64,000 bases of DNA. It comes from Candidatus Marinacidobacterium sp. GTDB taxonomy: Bacteria; Acidobacteriota; Vicinamibacteria; Marinacidobacterales; Marinacidobacteraceae. Below are positions 18,215-55,196 of this stretch, in pieces (the stretch's first letter is position 1; each line of letters opens with the position of its first letter). Below the pieces are notes generated by a model. That model worked only from the letters and a program-made list of their open reading frames with translations, had not been told where the DNA came from and made no database searches. The translations under genes were made by a program, and so were the position numbers. The stretch covers positions 418 to 64,417 of the forward strand of contig CBDHFO010000010.1 in the NCBI GenBank assembly GCA_965262645.1, given 5' to 3'.

Positions 18215-19718
18215 CAGGCCGTGGAAGAAGTGGCCCGCCGGGGAGCCGGTTGCAAGAGCGACAAGGACCGCGTGAGCGAGGTGTTCTTGTGCAAGAGGTG
18301 GCCTGAGAGGCGTAGGCAGCCGCGGTTTGGGCCCAGGAGGCCGAGGATGCGCCCGATTTGGCCAAGAAAGGCCGAGAAGTTGCGTGCGGAGGCGTCCGCG
18401 AGAGCTGCGGACGCTGCCGCGAGGCCCTGCAGGCCACGCGGGGTGCCGAAGCCGAAGAGGCTGCGCATCACCAGCGAAAGGTTGAAGGCGGCGGCGTGAA
18501 CGAGCATCCGTTTTCGGATCTCATTGTGCCCGCGTACGTGGACGCGGCGCAGCCCTCCGCTGCCGAGCAGGTGCGCGAACGTCCGCTCCAACTTCTCCCC
18601 GCGCTCGCGCAGCAGCCGCTTCCCGCGCTCGCCCCGGATGCGGCGGCGGTTGCCGTACGTCGCCTTCTGCGCGTCCCCTTGCCCTTCCACTTCCGGCGGC
18701 CCCGGTTCGGCTCGCTCACATAGCTCCGCAGTCCCCGCTCCGACACGCCCGTCATGGTTGCGTTCGAGTGGTAGCCCTTGTCGCCCACCAGTTCCTTCGG
18801 CCCCGCTCCCACCTCGGCCAGCTGGTGCTCGGTCTCGTCGAGCGTCACCGGCAGCGACGCGGTGTCGCCGCCGTCCATCGTCTGCACCGTCACCCCGGCC
18901 ACCGCGCCGCTCTCCATGTCCACCCCCACCTCCAGCTTGTGCGCGAGGCGGGTGCGACCGTCCTTCATCTTCGTGATCCGAGCCTCCGGGTCGTGCGGAT
19001 GCTTCCAGTCCTTGTTCGACCCCTTCTTCGGGCGCTTGCGGTCCAGCCTGGCCAGATCGTCGCGCGTCGGCGTCTCAATCCCCAACGCCTCCGCCAGCTT
19101 TTCGAGCCACGCGTCGTACTCCGTCCCGTCGTCACGCCTCACGATCGCGCGCATCGCCGCGTTCGCCTCCAGCGTCGTCGAATCCACCCCCACGGTCTTG
19201 CCTTTCAGCAGCCCCGACTCCTGCAGCCGCTCCAGCACCCAGCCGAACACGGCCCCGTGGGCCTCCAGGCTCAGCCGCTTGCGCGTCTTCGACAGCGTGG
19301 AATGCTCCGGCGGCGTCTTCGCCAGACCGTAGCCCAGAAACTCCCGCAGCGAGATCGAGTCCCTGCACCGCCACGCGATACCCCGCTCCGAGCCGATCCC
19401 CTCCAGGTATCCCACCATCAGCATCCGGAAGTACACGCCCGGTGCAAGGCCCGGCCGGCCCATCCGCGCCGCGTAGAACTCCCGGCACGTCTCCTCCGCG
19501 AACTCGTCGAAGCCACTCTTGCGCAGCAGCTTGTCCAGAGCCGCGTAGAACGGGTTGTCCAGCGCCCCGACCGCGCTGGCCGCGATGAACAGCTCCTTCT
19601 GCCGATCACTGGGCATCTTGCCTATCGCCATCGCCGTCACCTCTCGCTGAGGTCCTTGTGTCCTCCTAATTTAACTCCTTCCCAAGGACCTCGTGGGGCG
19701 GACTTTATCCACGGACTG
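18215..19718 (-). mobile_element. IS1182/IS5-like element; transposase frameshifted (19640 to ~18211)
   Basis: IRs CAGTCCGTGGATAAAGT / CAGGCCGTGGAAGAAGT; CTAG flanks; GVDSTT, DPEAR, DKGY; C-terminus in another frame near 18690. Confidence 0.85.
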
Positions 19719-19722
19719 CTAG

Positions 19723-21110
19723 TCGATAAGGTATGGCGGGAGGACTTCCTGCTGGCGGCATGGGCGCTGGTCCGGCGCAACGGCGGAGCGGCTGGAGTGG
19801 ATGGTGTGACGGTCGCGGATGTCGTGGTGCATGAAGTGGAGCGCTGGGTCGGGGAACTGTCGCGGGACCTGAGGGAAGGCACCTACAAGCCGAGTCCGGT
19901 GCGACAGGTGCTCATCCCGAAGAAGAAGCCGGGGAAGTTCCGTCCCCCGGGCATCCCATGCCTGAGGGACCGGGTTGCGCAGACGTCGGCGATGCTGGTG
20001 CTGTCGCCGATCTTCGAGGCGGACCTGGAGCCGGAGCAGTACGGATACCGGCCGGGACGAAGCGCCAAGGACGCGGTCAGGCGGATCCACCGCCTGCTGC
20101 ACACGGGCCGCAACGAAGTGATCGACGCGGACCTCTCGAACTACTTCGGCGAGATACCGCACGCTGAGTTGATGAAGAGCATCGCGCGGCGCGTAAGCGA
20201 CGGACGGATGCTTGGACTCATCAAGGCGTGGCTGGAAATGCCGGTGTTAGAGGAGGACGGTAAGGGCGGCACGCGCCGCACGAACCGGGCGCGAAAGGAA
20301 AGGAGGGGGACTCCGCAGGGAGCCCCGATCTCGCCGCTGTTGAGCAACATCTACATGCGGCGGTTCATCCTTGGCTGGAAGGCGCTGGGTCATGCCCGGC
20401 GCTTTGGTGTGGAGATCGTGAACTATGCGGATGACTTCTGTGTGCTCGGGAAGGCCCCGGCGGCGGAGATGCTGGCGGTGGTCAACCGGCTCATGGAACG
20501 ACTAAAGCTACCGGTCAACGCGCGGAAAACCCGATGCCTCCGATGCCCCGAGGAGCCCCTTGAGTTCCTCGGGTATTGCATCGGCTGGAACTATCGACCG
20601 AAGGACGGGAGCCGGTACATCGGCACACGGCCGAGCAGGGCGAGCGTTCAGAGCATCTGCCGCAGGATCAGCGAGCAAACGGACTACGGATATGGATGGC
20701 TGGAAGCTGAGGAAGTCGTAGGACGCCTGAACCGGATGATGTCGGGATGGGCGAACTACTTCAACCTCGGACAGATCGGCCCAGCATACAGGGCTGTGGA
20801 CCGGCATGCGATCGGGCGGCTGCGACGGTGGTTCTGTCGGAAGCACAAGGTGCGATCGGGGGGATACGTGCGTTTTCCCGACCAGCGGCTGTGGAAGCAC
20901 CACGGCCTTACGCGCCTGGGGCTGACGACCATGTACCTTCCGTGGGCGAAGGCGTGATCCCAACTGAGAGCCCGGTGCGGGAAAACCGCACGCCGCGTTC
21001 GACGAGCAGGGGCTGGAAACGGACCTATGGGAGACGAACTATGCACCGACGCGAAAGCGTGCGGAGGATGCCGTGTCCCCTAAGGGCACCGCGCCAGCCC
21101 TTGACTCTAC
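19723..21110 (+). mobile_element. 5'-truncated group II intron; RT/maturase 19723-20957, domains V-VI 20965-21110
   Basis: GIP..RDR, DADL..YF, GTPQG, YADD; DV GAGAGCCCGGTGCGGGAAAACCGCACGCCGCGTTCG; end CTCTAC. No endonuclease domain evident. 5' part lost at the IS boundary. Confidence 0.9.
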
Positions 21111-21129
21111 CGTGATTCCCAACGCTCAT

Positions 21130-21350
21130 TCCTTGCCAGCCCGGCGGTGCCGCCGAGAAACGCTTCTCCGGGCACGGCCGGGAACAGTGCCCACCGGGGC
21201 GTCGCGAGCAGCTCCTCGGCGCCGCGGTCGCCAGTCTCTTTGGCGGCCAGGGCGCGGATCCCGGCGCTTCTGCGCGCGGGCGCGTTCCGCCCTGCCTCCC
21301 CTACCCCCTCGGGAACCCGAGATCGTCGATCCTGGGCGATCCTGCGGCCC
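21130..21350 (+). repeat. Tail of an oriT module (nic missing)
   Basis: Close inverted homologue of 28253-28435; contains GAGATCGTCGATCCTGGGCGATC. Confidence 0.75.
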
Positions 21351-22998
21351 GGCGGGCTTCGCTCGGCGAGCCGAACCTCAGTGGCCCCGAGCCACCATCC
21401 TCCCGAACCGTGCTGAGCAGCATCGGGAAACAGCCTGTAAATGGTAACACCGAACTCAAGCATCGGGAACACTGAGTCTTGTCCAACGGCATGTGAGCCT
21501 GAACGGGGATCCGGTTTCCAGCGGGGAGTGAGCCTGAAGCGCGGGGCGAAGAGATCATTGGAGGATGATCGTGACACTTCGCACCGAACGGATACGGACC
21601 CTCGACCGACTCCGCGCCTTTCTTGAGGGCAATGAAGCCGCGGACTTCCAGCCCACCCACCGCGACTCCGCGTACGCCCTCGTGCGCCGGACGCTGGTCC
21701 GCTTCGAGTACCATGGCCTCGGGAAGCCGGCCAAGGGCCTGGTGAAGCGGTACATCGAGAAGGTGACCGGCTTCTCCCGGTCCCAGGTCACCCGCCTCAT
21801 CCGGCAGCACCGCCGGACCGGACACATCCGCGACCACCGCGGGAAGCCCCCGGCCAACGCTTTCGCGCGCCGCTACACCCCCTATGACGCGGCCCTCCTG
21901 GCCGAGGTTGACGAGGCTTTCGGCCAGCTCTCCGGACCCGCGACCAAGGTGATCCTGTGGCGCATGTGCCATGTCTACGGCGACGCGCGCTTCGAACGCC
22001 TCGCCCACATCTCGAACGGCCACATCTACAACCTCCGCAAGAGCCGGGCGTACCGGACCGGCCGCCTGACCCTCCGCGAGACCCGGTCCACGCCCGTGGG
22101 CTTCGGGATGCGCCGCAAGCCGCGGCCGGACGGAAGGCCCGGCTTTCTGCGCGTCGACACCGTCCACCTCGGCGATCTGGGTGGCCGCAAGGGTGCCTAC
22201 GTCATCAACGTCGTCGACGAAGTCACGCAGTTCCAACACCTTGGAGCCGTCCCGCGCATCACCCAGCAGTTCATGGTCCCCGTGCTGAAGGACCTCATCT
22301 CCGCCTTCCCCTTCACCGTCCGGGCCTTCCACGCCGACAACGGCTCCGAGTACATCAACCGCGAGGTCGCCGACCTGCTCAACCGGCTCCACATCCCCAC
22401 TTTCACCAAGTCCCGGCCCCGCCGCTCGAACGACAACGCCCTCGTCGAGTCCAAGAACGGCTCCATCGTCCGCAGGTGGCTCGGCCACATCCACGTCCCC
22501 CACGATCTCGTCCCCCAGGTCGACGCCTTCCTCCGGGACAGCCTCTGCCCCCTCCTCAACTTCCACCGGCCCTGCCTCTTTCCCACCGAGGTCACCAGCG
22601 CCAGCGGCCGCGTCAGGAAGACCTACCGGCAGGACGATGTCGCCACACCCTACCAGCACTTCAGATCGCTCGCCGGCGCCGAAGACTTCCTCCGGCCCGG
22701 CGTCACCTTCGAAGCCCTCGACCAACTCGCTTCCACCACCTCCGACCTCGACGCCGCCAAGGCCGTGCAATGCGCCCGCGATGCCCTCTTCCGTGCCATC
22801 GGCCAGGCCAGAGACTCCGCCGCATGAACCCCTCTCCGCCGGCCGCAGGCTCACCGGTGACCCTCCCGCGTCTCCGGTATCCGCTCGCTTACCGGTTGCC
22901 TCTCTCCGCTGTTCAGCGGATAATGACAAACACTTCAACTGCCACCTGCCTCGTGCCTGGGGCTCGTCCCTCGCCCTTCAGCCCTCCCCGCGTTCAGG

Positions 22999-24260
22999 CT
23001 TGTCTGTCCTATTTCAACCTTCTCTCCAAGGTTTGGGTTTCCGGGCCCGCAAGGGAGAGCCCGGCCCTTCGGCGCCCCGCGGGGCGCCGAAGGGGGACGG
23101 TGGTCGGGCCGTTTCAGGCTTGGCCGTGAGGGGCCGCAGATGAGTTTGGTCGCCACCGTCCTTCCCTACGTCCTGAATGGATACCTGAGCATCAAGGCTC
23201 GCATGACAAGCACAGGAGAGGGGAAGACATGACCCACCATACCGTCGGGATCGACATCTCGAAAGCCCGGCTCGACGCCTACGCCGCCCCCGAGGGCCGG
23301 GCGGCTCGGTTCTCGAACGATGCGGCCGGGTTCCGGAAGCTGATCGCCTGGATCGGCCCCGAGGCCGTCCGCGTCGCCTACGAACCCACCGGGCCCTTCC
23401 ACCGCGACTTCGAGGATGTCCTGCTGAAGGCTGGACTTCCGCTGTACGCGATCAACCCGTACCAGGTACGGTGCTTCGCGCGCTCCCAGGGACGCCGCGC
23501 CAAGACCGATGCCGTTGATGCCCGGACGCTGGCGACGATGGCGGGGGCAATCGACGATCTGCGCCCGACCCTGGCGAAATCCCCGACCCAGCGGGATCTC
23601 ACGGAACTGCAGATGGTGCGCGACTCGCTGGTCGCGGACTGGACCGCCATCGGCAACCGGGGCAAGCATTTGCGCCACGCCCGGGCCAAGTGGTTCAACA
23701 AACTCCGGCTGGCACAGATCAAGCGCCAGCTGAAGGGCGTGGACGCCGAGATCCAGAAGCTGCTTCGAAGCGATGGGACCCTGGACCGCAAGTCGGAGAT
23801 CCTGACCTCGATCCCCGGCATCTCCACTCTCACCGCTGCGGGGCTGATCGTCCACATGCCCGAACTGGGCACCATGACGGGCCCCCAGGCCGCCAGCCTC
23901 GCTGGGCTGGCGCCGGTGACGCGGGAGTCCGGCATATGGCAGGGGCGCAGTTTCATCCAGGGAGGAAGGGACAAGGTCCGGCGGCTCCTCTACATGCCCG
24001 CCCTCTCCGCGATCCGCTGCAATCCCGACCTCAAGCGGAAGTACCAATCGCTCCTCGACGCCGGCAAGCCGCCCAAGGTCGCCCTCACGGCCGTCATGCG
24101 GAAGCTCATCGTCCTGGCCAACGTCCTCGTCCAGCAGGATCGCCTCTGGACGCCGAAGCCGCAGCGGGCTGCCTGACATGCGCTCTCGAGGCATCGCCCC
24201 GCGCCGCCAGACCTCCGAGCGAATCGGCTCCCAACACTGGTCCCTTGACACATGGATACT
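22999..24260 (+). mobile_element. IS110-family element (copy 1); DEDD recombinase 23229-24176
   Basis: GIDISK, EPTG, KTDAVDA, RESG; CT core at 22999-23000 and 24259-24260; TTGACA near the right end. Confidence 0.92.
23040..23220 (+). ncRNA. Bridge RNA of IS110 copy 1
   Basis: Target loop TTTCAGGCT (23112-23120) / AGATGAG (23138-23144) matches flank GTTCAGG-CT-CATCT. Donor loop ATGGATAC (23177-23184) / GACAAG (23205-23210) matches circle junction ATGGATA-CT-TGTC. Confidence 0.88.
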
Positions 24261-24289
24261 CATCTCCGTGTTGGAAATGACTCACTGCT

Positions 24290-24430
24290 GCTCCGGTCGT
24301 CGTTCCGCTATTGGGCCGCCGAGGAAACGGACCACCCGCGCGAGGTCGTGGCGGCGGCGCTGGCGCACGCTGTCCAGAACGAGGTCGAGGCGGCGTACCG
24401 TCGCAACGATCTGTTCGGGGAATTGCCGGG
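24290..24430 (+). pseudogene. C-terminal fragment of a P4-like integrase
   Basis: RSSFRYWAAEETDHPREVVAAALAH...VEAAYRRNDLF. Confidence 0.7.
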
Positions 24431-24625
24431 GACCGAGAGGTGGGCGGCTGGCAGTCGGGCCGCTCAAAACGAATCGGCTGTCGTTCTCAGCCGACGGTCC
24501 AACTGCCATCCGTGGGTGGTCCCATCGCGGAGCCCAGCCGCGAACCCGTCGAGGCGCTGGACGGCCCTGGGGTCCATTTGCGCGGTTCAGTTCGGGCTCA
24601 CATCTTCCCCCCCACTTTCCTCAAT

Positions 24626-26389
24626 CCCCCCATATTCACGAGCGGTCTGGAAGCGAGGTGACGTGAGGCGGCAAGTGCTTTAGATTCAATGCGTTACAGG
24701 GAATCGCGAGCACCTGCCAGCCATCACGTCAAGGGTGAAGATAATGGATGCGCCGTTCAGCTTCAACAGGTCGATCAGGATCGGGTCCCGCCGGGACCGG
24801 ATCACGGGGGATTCGGGGGCTCTGACGGGGCGCGAGCTGCTGGGGCGCAGCAGGGTGGCGCGGTTTCTGGCGAACGGGCTGCCGGACAAGCGGGACGGGC
24901 GCCGGATCCGGCATTCTCAGAAGCGGCTGGCGCGGACGCTTCTGCTGCTGGCGGGGCAGGGCCGCCGGGACCACGGCGACGCCACGGAGCTGCGCGACGA
25001 TCCGGCGCTGCGGCTGGCCACGAGCGACCGGGCGGGTACGGCTCCGCTGGGTAGGGGCGGGCGCCTGCCGTCGCAGCCGACGCTGTCGCGGCGGGTGGCG
25101 GAGTGGTCGGCGAAGGAGGGCGTCGAGGTGCTGCGCGAGGGGTTGCAGCGGCTGGCGGGGTGGCGGCTGAAGGCGATGGGCGGGTGGCGGCGCCCGGAGA
25201 CGCTGGTCATCGACATCGACAGCCTGCCGGTCGAGGTCCACGGGGAACAGCCGGGCAGCGCGTGGAACGGCTACTATCGCCGGCGCGTGTATCATCCGAT
25301 CGTGGCGGCGGCGGGGGAGACGGGCGACATCCTGGACCTGCGGCTGCGCGAGGGGCAGGTCCACACGGCGGACGGCGGGCTGGAGTTCGTGATCGAGGTG
25401 CTGGAGCGGGCGGAGCGGCATCTGTGCGGCAACGCGGCCGGGCGCTTCGACGCGGGATATCCCGGCGAGCCGCTGATGGCGGCGCTGGAGGAGCGGGGCA
25501 CGCACTATGTGGCCCGGGTGCGCAACAACGCCGTGCTGAAGCGCCTGGCGCTGCCGGCCATGGACGCCGTGGTCTGGGATGCGCTGAACAACGGGGCGCC
25601 CGCCGGCGGCGAGCCCCGCACCTGGGTCCGCGAGTCGTCCTACCGGGCCGGGTCGTGGTCGCGTTCCCGCAGGGTCGTGCAGGTCGTCGTCGAGCGGCCG
25701 GGCGAACTCATCCCCCGATGCTTCGGGCTGCTGACTTCGATGTCCTCGGAGGAGATGTCCGGCGAGGATCTCCTGGCTCTGTACCGCAAGCGCGGCAAGG
25801 CGGAGGGCCACCTGGGCGAGCTGATGAGCGTCGTCGCCCCGGCCCTGTCGTCCACGTCGCGCCGCAAGAGCCACTACCGGGGCAGGGAGATCAGGAACCG
25901 AGAGAAGGGGGTGGACCCCTTCGCGTGCAACCAGGTGCGGCTGCTGCTCGCCGGCTTCGGCTACCAGATCATGCATGTCCAGCGCGCCTTGCTGGAGCGC
26001 GCGACCGGCACCGGCTGGAGCCTCCGGCGCCTCGCCGAGCGCGTGCTCCGCGCCCCGGCGCGCTTCACCGTCTCGGGCCGACGGATCACGATGACCACCG
26101 GAGGCGCGTCGGCGCACTGGCGCATGCTCGCCCGCGGACTCGCGACCCTGCACGGGCCCTCCGGATAGCGCGGCCGCCGCCCAAGCGCCGAACCCTTTCC
26201 CGGCCCCGGCGGCCGCAAGGATGCCGAGGTGTCTCCAAGCGCCGGAAACAGGCCGAAAAACTACTTCATTCGGACTCGAAACGCCTGTTTTTGGGCCCCC
26301 GGAACCGCCCCGACCCGCCCTCGGGGGTTGTGAGAGGCCCCTCAGCCCCCTACCTTGCCCTCGACTCGGGAATTCATGAATAAGGCAGG
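24626..26389 (+). mobile_element. IS1380-family element; transposase 24735-26168
   Basis: IRs CCCCCCATATTCACGA / CCTGCCTTATTCATGA; 6-bp TSD CTCAAT; TGDSG, SQPTLSR, DIDS, HGEQ, YRKRG..E. Confidence 0.88.
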
Positions 26390-26403
26390 CTCAATAGTGC
26401 TAG

Positions 26404-26712
26404 GTGCGAAGAATGACAATCACAGAGCATGACCTAGAACAAATCCGGGCACTAATCCGGGAAGAGGTTTCGGCGTCAGCTGGCTCGATGAACGAATGGG
26501 ATTTCAGAGCGAAGCGCCACAGTACCTGGGCCGCCATGCTCCGGCGAACTCTGCCGGCTATGGGTTTGCTGACGGTTGTGGCGCTTCTCGCCATGTGGAA
26601 AGCCGTAGACGCGGCGTCTTACGTGGCTGTTGCGATTGCCGGGGCTTACGCGTCCGCGTCCTTCCAAGCAGCTACCAAGAAGCAAAGCGTCTTGACGGGC
26701 TTCTCCGTGTAG
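26404..26712 (+). CDS. Small hypothetical membrane protein (two TM segments)
   Basis: Two hydrophobic stretches; ATG at 26413. Confidence 0.5.
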   Translation: MRRMTITEHDLEQIRALIREEVSASAGSMNEWDFRAKRHSTWAAMLRRTLPAMGLLTVVALLAMWKAVDAASYVAVAIAGAYASASFQAATKKQSVLTGFSV

Positions 26713-26919
26713 CGGGGGTGTCTTGGTCACGGAGGTCCGTCCTCTCGTTGGCTGGCGGTCAATTTCGCATGGGCTTCGATTGGGTGGAGCATCTCGCGGG
26801 CCGGAGGGTGCTCCGATGGCTTGATTGGACATGCCGAAGCCTGTGACGGGGCTCAGGAGGCCGTTTCCGGGCGCAGCGGGGGCTTTTTGGGTAGCCTGCC
26901 GGCCGTAAAATCGCCCAGG

Positions 26920-28252
26920 ATCGTATGTGGACGCCCCGAAGTGGGCAAGCGCGGATTCAGAACCGAGTTGGTGGCAGTTGGCCAAGTACTGTCGTATGTC
27001 CGGCCTCTTGATGCAGCGCTGTTTGGCTGCGGGCCCGTATGGTGTTCGTGAGAATCGGATCCAATTCGACGATGCGGGCTCAAAGGCCCTCGATCCTGGT
27101 CTGGTTTTTCCGATCCCGTCTTGTCGACCGTTTGCCCTTACCCGTTCCTGCGTCCTGCTAACCAACACCTCCCGACTGCTTCTTCGCTTTTCGCTTCTCT
27201 CCTTTCGCCGCCGGTCAGGCGGCAGTGCGAACCCGGTAGGTCTCCTTCGTCGTCGTCAGTGCCCAGACCCTCCGCGCCGTCCTGTTGGCGAGCGCGACCG
27301 CCACCAGCTTCTTCGGCTTGCGTGCCAACATCCCGGCCAGCCACGGATCCGTGATCTCGCTGCGCCGGCTCGCCTGCTGAACGACCGCCATGGCTCCCGT
27401 GATCAGGAGCCGCCTGAGATCGCGCTGGCCCATTTTCGAGATCCCGCCCAGCCTCGGCTTGCCTCCGGTGGTGTGCTGCCGCGCGGCACGAGACCGAGCC
27501 AAGCCGAGAAGTCGCGCCCGCGCCGGAAGCTCTCCATCGGCGGTGCGAAGGCCTGCAACGCCATCGCGGTGACCGGCCCGATGCCCGGGATCGTCATCAG
27601 CCGCGCCGTCTCTTCGTTCTCCCTCGCGCTCGTCCGGATCTTCAGGTCGAGTGCGTCGATCTTGTCGTTGAGCTCGTCGATCCGCCCGAGCAGCAGCCCG
27701 CCCAGTTCGGCGACCGCCTCCGGCAGGCCACAGTCCCCGTCTTCGAGCACCGCGGCCAGCTGCCCGATTCGCGCCCTGCCCTGGGGAGCGACAACGCCGT
27801 ACTCGGCGAGGTGGCCCCGAAGCGCGTTGATCGTCTGCGTGCGCTGGCGCACCAGAAGGTCACGCGTGTGAAAGAGCATCCCCTGCGCCTGCTGCGCCTC
27901 GGTCTTGACCTCCACGAAGTGCATGGTCGGACGCTGGGCCGCTTCCGTGATCGCCTCTGCGTCGGCCGCGTCGTTCTTGTGCCTCTTGACGAATCGCCAC
28001 CGTACACCCCGGTTGCGAGGCGAGAAACCTCAGCAGCCTCCCGCGGCTCAGCTTCCGGCGGAAGGCCACCGACCCGTCCGCTCTCGCCCCGTGCACCTGA
28101 AAGCTCCGCTTTGCCAGATCGATCCCGATGATGCTAACCTCTTCCATGTGGATGTCTCCTCCCTGTGATGGTCAGACCTCTCAAGGTCGCAATCCCTTCA
28201 GTACCATCATGGCACATCGCGATGCCGCCGGGAGGGGGCGTCCACTCCATCG
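26920..28252 (-). mobile_element. IS1111-group (IS110 family) element; transposase pseudogene 27215-28147
   Basis: Sub-terminal IRs TGGACGCCCC / GGGGCGTCCA; core CGAT at both junctions; GIDLAK, KNDAADA; internal deletion and frameshift. Confidence 0.88.
26960..27150 (-). ncRNA. Bridge/seek RNA of the IS1111-like element
   Basis: CCAGGATCGA (27090-27099) and ATCGTCGA (27066-27073) flank a hairpin and match the two strands of target ATCGT-CGAT-CCTGG. ACATACGA (26992-26999) matches the donor end. Confidence 0.82.
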
Positions 28253-43877: not shown

Positions 43878-45139
43878 AGTATCCATGTGTCAAGTATTCG
43901 GTCTGGAGTGACTCCGGACTGAGGCGTGGCACGCCGGTGTGAGAGGAGCGAAGGTAGCCATGTCAGGCAACCGCAGCCGACTGCGGTTCCGGGGTCCAGA
44001 GGCGGTCCTGCTGGACAAGGACGTTGGCGAGGATCACGAGCTTCCGCATGACCGCCGTGAGCGCGACCTTCGGCGGCTTGCCGACGGCAAGCAGGGCCTC
44101 GTATTTCCGCTTGAGGTGGGGATTGCAGCGGATCGCGGCCAAAGCGGGCATGTAGAGCATCCGCCGCACCTTCTCCCTTCCGCCCTGGATGAAGCTGCGC
44201 CCCTTCCAGGTGCCGGACTCGCGGGTAACCGGCGCCAGCCCAGCGAGGCCGGCGGCCCGGGGCCCGGTCATCGTACCGAGTTCGGGCATGTGGACGAGCA
44301 GCCCCGCGGCGGTGATGCCGGAGATGCCGGGGATCGAGGTGAGGATCTCGGTCTTGCGTCTCAGAAGCTTCTCACTTCGGAGCAGCTTCTGGATCTCGGC
44401 GTCGACATCCTTCAGATGGCGCTTGATCTCGGCCAGCCGACTGTCGTGGATCCCCTTGGCCAGAGGATATCGCAAGTTCTTGCTCCGGTTGATGATGGCA
44501 GTCTTCTCTGCGATCAGCGCATCGCGCACCAACTGCAGTTTGGAAAGCTCACGCTGGCTCCGGGACTTGCCCCGGGTCGGGCGCAGATCGTCGATCGCGG
44601 CCGCCATGACTGCCAGCGTGCGTGCGTCGATAGCGTCCGTTTTGGCGCGCGGTCCCAGCGACCTGGCGAAGCACCGGACCTGGTAGGGGTTGATCGCGTA
44701 CAGAGGAACCTCCGCCTTCAACAAGGCTTCCTCGAAGTCGCGGTGCCACGGGCCAGTGGGCTCGTAGGCGACCCGGTCGAGCTCTGCCCCTATCCAGTTG
44801 ATCAGCTTCCGGAACCCGGCCGCGTCGTTCGCAAAGCGGGCGGCCTTGGCTTGGGGTGCGGCGTAGGTGTCGAGTCAGGCTTTCGAGATGTCGATCCCGA
44901 CGGTATGGTGGGTCATCTTCCCTTCTCCTGTGCTTGTCATGCGAGCCATTATGCTCAGGTATCCATTCAGGACGTTGGGAAGGACGGTGGCGACCACACT
45001 GCTATACGGCCCGTAGACGGCCAAGCGCTAGACGGCCCGACCACCGCCCCCCTTCGGTGCTCCCGCGGGAGCACCGAAGGGCCGGGCCCACCCCACGGAC
45101 CCGGAAATTCAAATCTAGGGGTGAAATGGAACAGACAAG
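43878..45139 (-). mobile_element. IS110-family element (copy 2); recombinase pseudogene 43963-44916
   Basis: Paralogue of copy 1; codon 14 is TGA (CGG in copy 1); CT core at both junctions. Confidence 0.9.
44925..45105 (-). ncRNA. Bridge RNA of IS110 copy 2 (different target guides)
   Basis: Same scaffold and donor guides as copy 1; target guides TCTAGCGCT (45024-45032) / ATAGCAG (44999-45005). Confidence 0.85.
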
Positions 45140-45974
45140 CCTGGGCGGGGAGCCGGTTTCCAGCGAGAGATGAGCCCGAAGCGCGGGGCGAAGAGATCAT
45201 TGGAGGATGATCGTGACACTTCGCACCGAACGGATACGCACTCTCGACCAGATCCGGGCCTTCCTGGACGGTAGCGAGCCGACGGACTTCAGGTTCGGCG
45301 GCAGGGACTCCGCCTACGACTTCGTCCGCCGGACGCTGGTCCGCTTCGAGTTCCATGGCCTCAAGCGGGATGAAAAGGGCCTGGTAAAGCGCTTCATCGA
45401 GAAGGTGACGGGCTACTCGCGGTCCCAGATCACCCGCCTCGTCAAGCAGCACCGCCGGACCGGGGGGATCCGCGACCACCGCAAGAAGCCCCCCGCCAGG
45501 CCCTTCGCGCACCGCTACACCGACCTTGACGCCGCCCTGCTGGCCGAGGTCGACGAGGCCTTCGGCCAGCTCTCCGGACCCGCGACCAAGGTGGTCCTGT
45601 GGCGCATGTACCATGTCTACGGCGACCGGCGTTTCACACGGCTCGCCGGCATCTCAGGAGGCCACATCTACAACCTCCGCAGCAAACCGGCTCACCGCCT
45701 ATGGTGAGCAGTGCCCTGCGGAGCTCCGACGCTGAACTCCACCAAGTGAACCCGAAGGACGTTGACCGTCTGGGTGCGCTGGCGCACCAGAAGATCAGCG
45801 TCACTACATTGCATGGTCGGTCGCAGCGCCGCTTCCTGAATCTCCTCCGCGTCCCCTGCGTCGTTTCTCTTGCCTCTTTACAAAGGGCTTCACGTACGTC
45901 GGACGAACAGTCTCACTTCGCTGCCGAGGGTCATGACCTCTCGGCCCCAATAGTGGGCGCTACACTAGGACTAG

Positions 45975-55039: not shown

Positions 55040-55116
55040 CTTCGCTCCGCGCTTTGGGCTCATCTCTCGCTGGAAACCGGCTCTCCGCTTGGACTCATTT
55101 GTCGTTCGACAAGACC
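55040..55116 (-). mobile_element. Isolated, unoccupied left end of the ISNCY-like element
   Basis: Matches 43857-43879 joined to 45140-45195 without the IS110 (...GGA-CT-CATTTGTCGTTCGACAAGAC). Confidence 0.8.
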
Positions 55117-55196
55117 CCAGGTTGACGTTTCAAGAGAACAGCTTAGCTTCTGTGGTTATGAACGGACTGCCCCCATCAAGGAACGCCTAGAATAGA

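Follow-up and report, generated by a model that had tools for sequence, protein, structure and literature searches.

A predicted bridge RNA in an IS110-group insertion sequence nested in the end repeat of another insertion sequence of Candidatus Marinacidobacterium

A 64,000-bp stretch of a Candidatus Marinacidobacterium sp. genome (assembly GCA_965262645.1, contig CBDHFO010000010.1, positions 418 to 64,417; hereafter the window, numbered from its first letter) contains at 23001-24260 what we regard, with a probability of about 85%, as an intact insertion sequence (IS) of the IS110 group, the leader of which carries guides matching both the element's own insertion site and its own end junction. 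The element measures 1,260 bp counting one CT core (the cores lie at 22999-23000 and 24259-24260) and lies inside an rve-type IS, nested in its right inverted repeat at a distance of 29 bp from the tip. The features of the element and of its insertion site are as follows.

22992-23000, + strand: left target half GTTCAGG with the core CT (22999-23000), an inner part of the right repeat of the host IS
23001-24260, + strand: IS110-group element, delimited by the duplicated CT core, the guide matches and alignment with a second copy (copy 2) and relatives
23001-23228, + strand: left non-coding end (leader) encoding the predicted bridge RNA, from its fold and a consensus structure
23041-23095, + strand: predicted 5' stem-loops of the bridge RNA, including a perfect palindrome at 23065-23094, from the fold and an inverted-repeat search
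23096-23160, + strand: predicted target-binding loop, composed of an outer stem, the left target guide (LTG, 23112-23120), a distal hairpin and the right target guide (RTG, 23138-23144), from the consensus structure
23161-23226, + strand: predicted donor-binding loop, composed of the left donor guide (LDG, 23176-23184), a hairpin and the right donor guide (RDG, 23204-23210), from the consensus structure
23229-24176, + strand: IS110 recombinase, 315 amino acids, from Pfam, NCBIfam and alignment to IS621 and ISCro4
24177-24260, + strand: right end with a -35-like TTGACA (24245-24250) and the core CT (24259-24260), read from the sequence
24261-24289, + strand: right target half CATCT (24261-24265) and the outer 29 bp of the host right repeat

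The LTG TTTCAGGCT, which forms the 5' strand of the internal loop in the first module of the predicted RNA, is identical to the left flank GTTCAGGCT (22992-23000) at eight of nine positions, CT included, and the RTG AGATGAG, on the 3' strand of the same loop, is the exact reverse complement of CTCATCT (24259-24260 joined to 24261-24265; 7/7); an inverted-repeat search recovered the latter pair unprompted, as 11 nt with 91% complementarity. In the second module, the LDG AATGGATAC agrees with the right end ATGGATA-CT at 8/9 positions, and the RDG TGACAAG agrees with the reverse complement of CT-TGTCT at 6/7; the CT core is common to all four pairings. With the loop positions fixed and the base composition of this genome (67% G+C), matches of this quality are expected by chance with a probability of ~3e-8 for the target pair and ~6e-7 for the donor pair. 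The sequence-only reading had described all four guides as readable, the target guides against GTTCAGG-CT-CATCT and the donor guides against the element's own end junction, and these matches are indeed present in the sequence; the TTGACA that it placed at the right end was found as well, 8 bp before the core.

The left flank closes with GTTCAGG-CT and the element opens with TGTCTGTCC at 23001; its right end closes with TTGACACATGGATA-CT, and the right flank opens with CATCTCC at 24261. Exactly these ends are common to relatives with unrelated flanks, and the element is therefore 23001-24260; the span proposed earlier, 22991-24283, contains it but adds both target halves. Contigs of sequencing run X5, from another study, cover 22998-24268 without one differing letter. 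The non-coding ends are 228 nt (left, 5' of the gene) and 84 nt (right), and none of the inverted-repeat pairs listed (25 of 27) joins the two termini, terminally or subterminally. The long upstream non-coding end and the absence of end-linking repeats among those pairs assign the element to the IS110 group rather than to the IS1111 group, following the distinction drawn in the available part of PMC11187229, and at the sequence level the IS110-group features examined are present, apart from a junction promoter with a weak -10.

The recombinase gene, 948 nt and open throughout, encodes a protein with the domains DEDD_Tnp_IS110 (PF01548, E-value 1.3e-23) and Transposase_20 (PF02371, 1.3e-18), and the protein scores 197.9 bits (cut-off 140) against the NCBIfam model NF033542, "IS110 family RNA-guided transposase". 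Sequence matches in the PDB were ISCro4 (9t56, 9e-32) and IS621 (8wt6, 3e-29). Residues D9, E52, D94, D97 and S234 align with the catalytic positions of IS621 in chain 8wt6_A, the numbering of which is 2 ahead of that used in PMC11208158, where the DEDD motif and the serine are given as D11, E60, D102, D105 and S241 in the part of the paper available. The recombinase thus looks intact, and the earlier description of an intact RNA-guided recombinase agrees with the open frame, the five of five catalytic residues kept and the apparently intact guides and scaffold.

Folding of the leader gave -112.9 kcal/mol (z-score -3.26), and none of 200 shuffled sequences was equally stable. The consensus fold of seven relatives (RNAalifold) contains two modules, in each of which an outer stem leads through an internal loop to a distal hairpin, and this is the layout of the target-binding and donor-binding loops as described in the accessible portion of PMC11208160. 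Relatives were gathered from three sources: a protein search of 61 related genomes, five of which, our own included, gave a hit at E<=1e-40; a genome-contig search, which gave one truncated relative; and a pattern drawn from the conserved scaffold, which gave 11 metagenome loci. Over 14 distinct leaders, 97.3% of the 476 cells of the consensus structure are paired, compared to 37-56% after shifting the partners by 1-3 columns. Compensatory changes occur in three pairs only and most stem pairs are invariant, so the case for the structure leans on conservation more than on covariation, for which the support is thin.

The same alignment distinguishes the two loops. The majority fraction is 0.49 in the LTG columns and 0.62 in the RTG columns of the target loop, versus 0.84-0.94 in the stems and the donor loop, and nine of ten columns of the LDG loop are invariant across the 14 relatives. 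Measured as the best ungapped match inside its own loop, the LTG agrees with its own left flank at 7-8 of nine positions in 10 of the 11 distinct rows, compared to a mean of 4.6/9 in the cross-pairing control (n=139; the maximum of 8 comes from related lineages with similar flanks); the RTG agrees with its own right flank at 6-7 of seven positions in four of the five distinct rows, compared to a control mean of 4.0/7 (n=62). Rows with the flank absent from the contig or N-masked are omitted from this tally, as are the right ends of the relatives in G014, among which the right flank of locus L009, read by eye, fits its RTG at 6/7. Judged from these alignments, the target loop is naturally reprogrammed on a constant donor loop within a small clade.

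A plain structured 5' untranslated region with accidental guide-flank matches would account for a leader on which an Rfam search of 20000-28000 at E<=1 found nothing, its sole hit being a piece of a group II intron, and G+C-rich DNA does fold readily. However, the joint chance values given above, the manner in which the guides follow their own flanks in the distinct relatives, and the exact coincidence of the guides with the internal loops of a scaffold whose two modules are conserved make this explanation practically negligible.

Several further observations were made on the relatives. In G014 (loci L004, L008, L009 and L010-L015), three IS110 relatives with 66-68% protein identity lie in the arms of short palindromes; the target word occurs there in inverted pairs ~77 nt apart, with 22 matches versus 5 for the reversed control, and the palindromic repeat, the arms of which are targeted by these scaffold-sharing relatives, is ~90 bp long. 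A Pfam search of 58 flanking open reading frames (ORFs) of at least 110 amino acids around L001, L003, L004, L008 and L009 found no family at E<=1e-5. On the reverse strand of L018, positions 1440-1700 hold the stump of a related IS110 element, with a full leader and a few codons, adjoining an AAA_15/DUF2813 ATPase gene; the left flank of L018 was considered as the left repeat of an rve-type IS and rejected, tblastn having found neither an rve nor an IS110 protein there. In runs X5, X6 and X9, the summed contig depth at 23119-23225, which corresponds to the donor-binding loop, is ~5-30 times that of the neighbouring bins, and loose contig ends at 23131 and 23219 run into other target loops and other coding starts. 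Many relatives with the same donor loop and other targets appear to live in the communities sampled by X5, X6 and X9.

The insertion site belongs to a host IS, the features of which are listed below.

21470-24289, + strand: host rve-type (DDE) IS carrying the nested IS110 element, delimited by empty-site joints
21470-21504, + strand: left inverted repeat of the host IS, uninterrupted; a weaker target (11/14 to the guides)
21565-22827, + strand: rve-type transposase of the host IS, 420 amino acids, from the Pfam rve model

On contig C11 of the genome, a paralogous empty site lacks the whole block and connects window position 21469 to 24290; in a contig of run X9, 21468 and 24290 are separated by a single letter. 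The host IS and its passenger together therefore extend over 21470-24289. When the right end is rejoined and reverse-complemented, the left repeat matches it at ~28/36 positions (counted by eye), and both close inward in GAGCCTGAAC. Counted from the tip, the 14-bp target falls at about positions 25-38, in the inner, subterminal part of the repeat. The transposase matches Pfam rve at 5.5e-8 (33.4 bits, cut-off 32.6), and NCBIfam returned only the sub-threshold models IS481 (54.5 bits, cut-off 224) and IS3 (38.7 bits, cut-off 160). Its best protein match (48.5% identity) is labelled merely "integrase", and the label "ISNCY family transposase" is borne only by distant plasmid relatives with 27-28% identity. 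Thus, where the target had been called the right inverted repeat of an ISNCY-like element, it proves to be in the right repeat of the rve-type IS whose transposase gene lies upstream, but subterminally, and the name ISNCY-like is weakly supported, with curated models below threshold and labelled proteins only 27-28% identical.

The occupied site fits the guides at 13/14 positions. Five other rve repeat ends in this genome fit at 10-12/14 and are all empty; the target word is found with 1-3 changes in the uninterrupted repeats of two C11 rve copies (74% identical) and of the left end of the host IS, and rve relatives in two other genomes also keep the motif in right repeats that are uninterrupted. 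No intact site within one mismatch of the guide-predicted 14-mer exists in the 4.9-Mb genome; 19 sites are at two mismatches, 17 of them outside rve ends. A whole-genome blastn-short search for copies of the repeat recovered nothing beyond the repeat itself and a second, truncated rve copy, here called copy B. The location of the target in the conserved inner part of rve inverted repeats explains why the IS110 element is nested in another IS; this nesting gives it a multi-copy, mobile landing site, and it can probably travel as a passenger of the host IS.

At the left end of the host IS, GAGCCTGAA occurs twice in direct orientation (21494-21504 and 21530-21540), and the same arrangement is present in copy B; the pair may represent putative transposase-binding sub-repeats, the outer of which is overlapped by the IS110 target. 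A third rve-type copy is represented at ~55040-55125, on the reverse strand, by a solo left end, which is truncated and is uninterrupted at the IS110 insertion position. The DNA into which the host IS itself inserted is also multi-copy: 24290-24400 resembles six places in the genome (C11 12005-12109, C11 13239-13345 and four on C17) with 72-85% identity. The ORF at 24252-24683 had no Pfam hit.

A BLAST search of the genome with the IS110 element found one further copy.

43878-45137, - strand: copy 2 of the IS110 element, 1,260 bp, about 81% identical by genome BLAST

Copy 2 occupies the left repeat of copy B, which retains a transposase fragment (45207-45701) with 76% protein identity over residues 1-165. 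The two IS110 copies use the homologous CT and are both oriented toward the tip of the repeat (n=2), and since copy 1, the element at 23001-24260, lies in a right repeat and copy 2 in a left one, they represent separate insertion events. The recombinase gene of copy 2 (43972-44916) has a premature TGA at codon 14. Its donor guides are the same as those of copy 1, and the ends are shared over 16 nt on the right and 7 nt on the left. The target guides (LTG TCTAGCGCT, 45024-45032; RTG ATAGCAG, 44999-45005) differ from those of copy 1 at four of nine and three of seven positions, with the adjoining stems 94% identical. Against its own flanks copy 2 scores 4/9 and 4/7, which is at the level of chance and makes it the single outlier in both tallies of relatives; own-guide targeting does not explain every insertion here. 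An explanation by half-sites was also tried and failed on both halves, with the same 4/9 and 4/7. The survey of genome copies for the same target, suggested with the sequence-only reading, therefore gave a mixed result: the other copy is at the same position of the repeat, but its guides do not match it.

Three explanations can be proposed for copy 2. Ranked first, though tentatively and as less probable than its negation, is delivery in trans, where a bridge RNA and recombinase of the copy 1 type would have placed copy 2 in the rve repeat; this would be feasible because the donor ends and donor guides are identical between the copies, and a bridge RNA supplied in trans works according to the part of PMC11208160 available. 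The second candidate is a recombination event with another lineage that replaced the target loop. The copy 2 RTG is nearer to that of the L020/L024 lineage (7/8, by eye) than to that of copy 1 (4/8). A mosaic test, in which identity to copy 1 and to L024 was compared in 100-column windows, found no clear recombinant block: copy 2 is 80% identical to copy 1 versus 77% to L024 overall, and only the window with the target loop is nearer to L024 (91% versus 86%), which is not decisive. The third candidate is drift of the target guides after the gene was broken.

By analogy with IS621, the element would be excised as a circle, and the joined ends would place the right-end -35 box TTGACA beside a weak -10 in the left end, so that the bridge RNA could be transcribed from the rebuilt junction promoter; RNA-loaded recombinase tetramers would then bring about pairing between the circle junction and GTTCAGG-CT-CATCT, the 14-bp target, and recombination would take place at CT. 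A perfect TTGACA is present in four of the four right ends scored, with differing surrounding sequence. The -10 of G014 relatives matches at 4/6 with a 17-nt spacer. The non-coding 3' portion of the host IS contains, at 22896-22924 on the forward strand, a sigma-70-like site (TTGCCT-17-GATAAT, 9/12) that faces the leader and is the only such site in 22800-24400, versus 0.1 expected; it could drive read-through transcription of the bridge RNA in the integrated state. Metatranscriptome contigs from another study lie on the leader at 23029-23166 (one differing letter), 23170-23210 and 23186-23221, so that the leader with its target loop is represented in that library; this is no more than a hint of leader transcription, since such libraries can also contain DNA. 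In RNA run X20, near-identical cover is lacking over some stretches of the recombinase gene and the rve IS, which counts neither way.

Besides the Rfam result and the mismatch of copy 2, several points weigh against the reading given at the outset. The -10 of the junction promoter in this copy matches at only 3/6 at every spacing of 16-19 nt; neither a circle junction nor a precise IS110 empty site or empty right repeat is among the joints listed; and one intact copy is present in the 89.9%-complete genome. Together with a sister copy that is already a pseudogene, these are the features expected if copy 1 were a dead footprint, a past RNA-guided insertion that is now immobile owing to a weak junction promoter or lost host factors. 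We consider this doubtful, while giving it real weight: the frame is open with all five catalytic residues present, the guides and scaffold are intact and fit the site at 13/14, the X5 contigs match the element letter for letter, and an RNA-library contig lies on the leader.

Two other points of the same kind concern the location. Only two of the ten rve repeat ends examined are occupied, and a tblastn search with the rve protein, covering the loci collected up to that point, matched only the window loci L002 and L007. As no relative outside the window was found beside an rve gene in that search, targeting of IS ends is a matter of the present guides of this lineage and not a property of the clade. 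The element could be a genuine bridge-RNA IS110 for which the IS end is incidental, the 14-bp word simply happening to occur in an rve repeat. The low occupancy agrees with this, as do the 17 genomic sites outside rve ends at two mismatches from the guides and the relatives that share the scaffold and aim elsewhere, for example at the G014 palindrome arms (22 matches versus 5) or at other words. Against it stand two separate insertions in the right and left repeats of diverged rve copies, which share the homologous position and their orientation relative to the repeat; in three genomes, the target word of the rve copies falls in a stretch of the repeat that is conserved, and targeting of repeat ends is an established habit in the IS110/IS1111 family. 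An incidental location is thus quite unlikely. Sequence and comparison bear out the core of the earlier reading, an intact IS110 recombinase together with a bridge RNA in which the target loop is aimed at another IS's inverted repeat; its wording that the element parasitises ISNCY-like ends has behind it one guide-matched insertion and a second that the guides leave unexplained.

Mobile elements are densely packed in the window. A group II intron (18768-21110) immediately precedes the host IS and has an ORF containing RVT_1 (5e-32) and GIIM maturase domains; the Rfam Intron_gpII match at 20966-21110 scores 30.2 bits, below the gathering score of 40. An IS1380-family transposase gene (24735-26168; NCBIfam 245.3 bits, cut-off 180; Pfam DDE_Tnp_1_4) lies ~450 bp downstream of the host IS. 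On the reverse strand, 27403-27924 is a fragment of a third, unrelated IS110-family recombinase gene (Transposase_20, 2e-10), which the BLAST search with the IS110 element did not recover.

In comparison with the bridge-RNA systems of IS621 and ISCro4, as far as they are described in the available parts of PMC11208160 and PMC11208158, the element has the same recombinase domains and catalytic residues. Like IS621, it has a leader upstream of the gene, composed of a 5' stem-loop, a target-binding loop and a donor-binding loop; an LTG corresponding to the top strand of the left target and an RTG complementary to the right target, with CT in the four pairings; a -35 box in the right end; and a repeated sequence as its natural target. 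The protein is only distantly similar to those of IS621 and ISCro4 (E-values of about 1e-29 to 1e-31). It differs in that it targets an end repeat belonging to another IS, that its RTG matches over 7 nt and that its -10 is weak; the element is known from sequence alone.

Neither this kind of element nor its habit of entering end repeats is new, as two known cases illustrate. In Pseudomonas putida H, IS1383 is reported to integrate specifically into the IS1384 inverted repeats (Mueller, Lauf and Herrmann, 2001). IS1383, which is cited in PMC11208160 and PMC11187229 on IS110/IS1111 elements, resembles our element in being directed specifically to an inverted repeat that belongs to a different insertion sequence; the host, the host IS and the sequences are different, and IS1383 is known to us by the title of that paper alone. 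Partridge and Hall are said to have described in 2003 the targeting by IS4321 and IS5075 of the 38-bp terminal repeats of Tn21-family transposons. The integration of these IS1111-group elements into Tn21-family repeats is treated by Siddiquee et al. 2024 (PMC11187229), the available part of which indicates a fixed position and orientation in the transposon terminal repeat and a guide RNA encoded by the element, as in the present case. IS4321 and IS5075, being of the IS1111 type, have a seekRNA downstream of the gene and subterminal inverted repeats, whereas our element has an upstream leader and, among the inverted pairs listed, none that joins its two ends. In the same portion of PMC11187229, ISEc11 and ISXne4 form a natural reprogramming pair; as there, close relatives of our element keep the scaffold while the target-matching stretches differ, but each guide of that pair fits its own site, and copy 2 does not. 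The suggestion that the element is a candidate programmable tool is true here, but it is equally true of any intact IS110 element.

The element provides a natural example in which all four bridge-RNA guides can be read against an identified target, and one more case of an RNA-guided IS nested in the end repeat of another IS. Such nesting supplies landing sites that are multi-copy and mobile, and it may disable the host IS or ride it. The mismatch of copy 2 is relevant to the question of whether, in nature, bridge RNAs work in trans across related elements. If delivery in trans were true, IS110 lineages with a common donor loop would form a guild in nature, where the target loop of one member would set the landing sites of its relatives, defective ones included, and the guides of a given copy need not predict its location.

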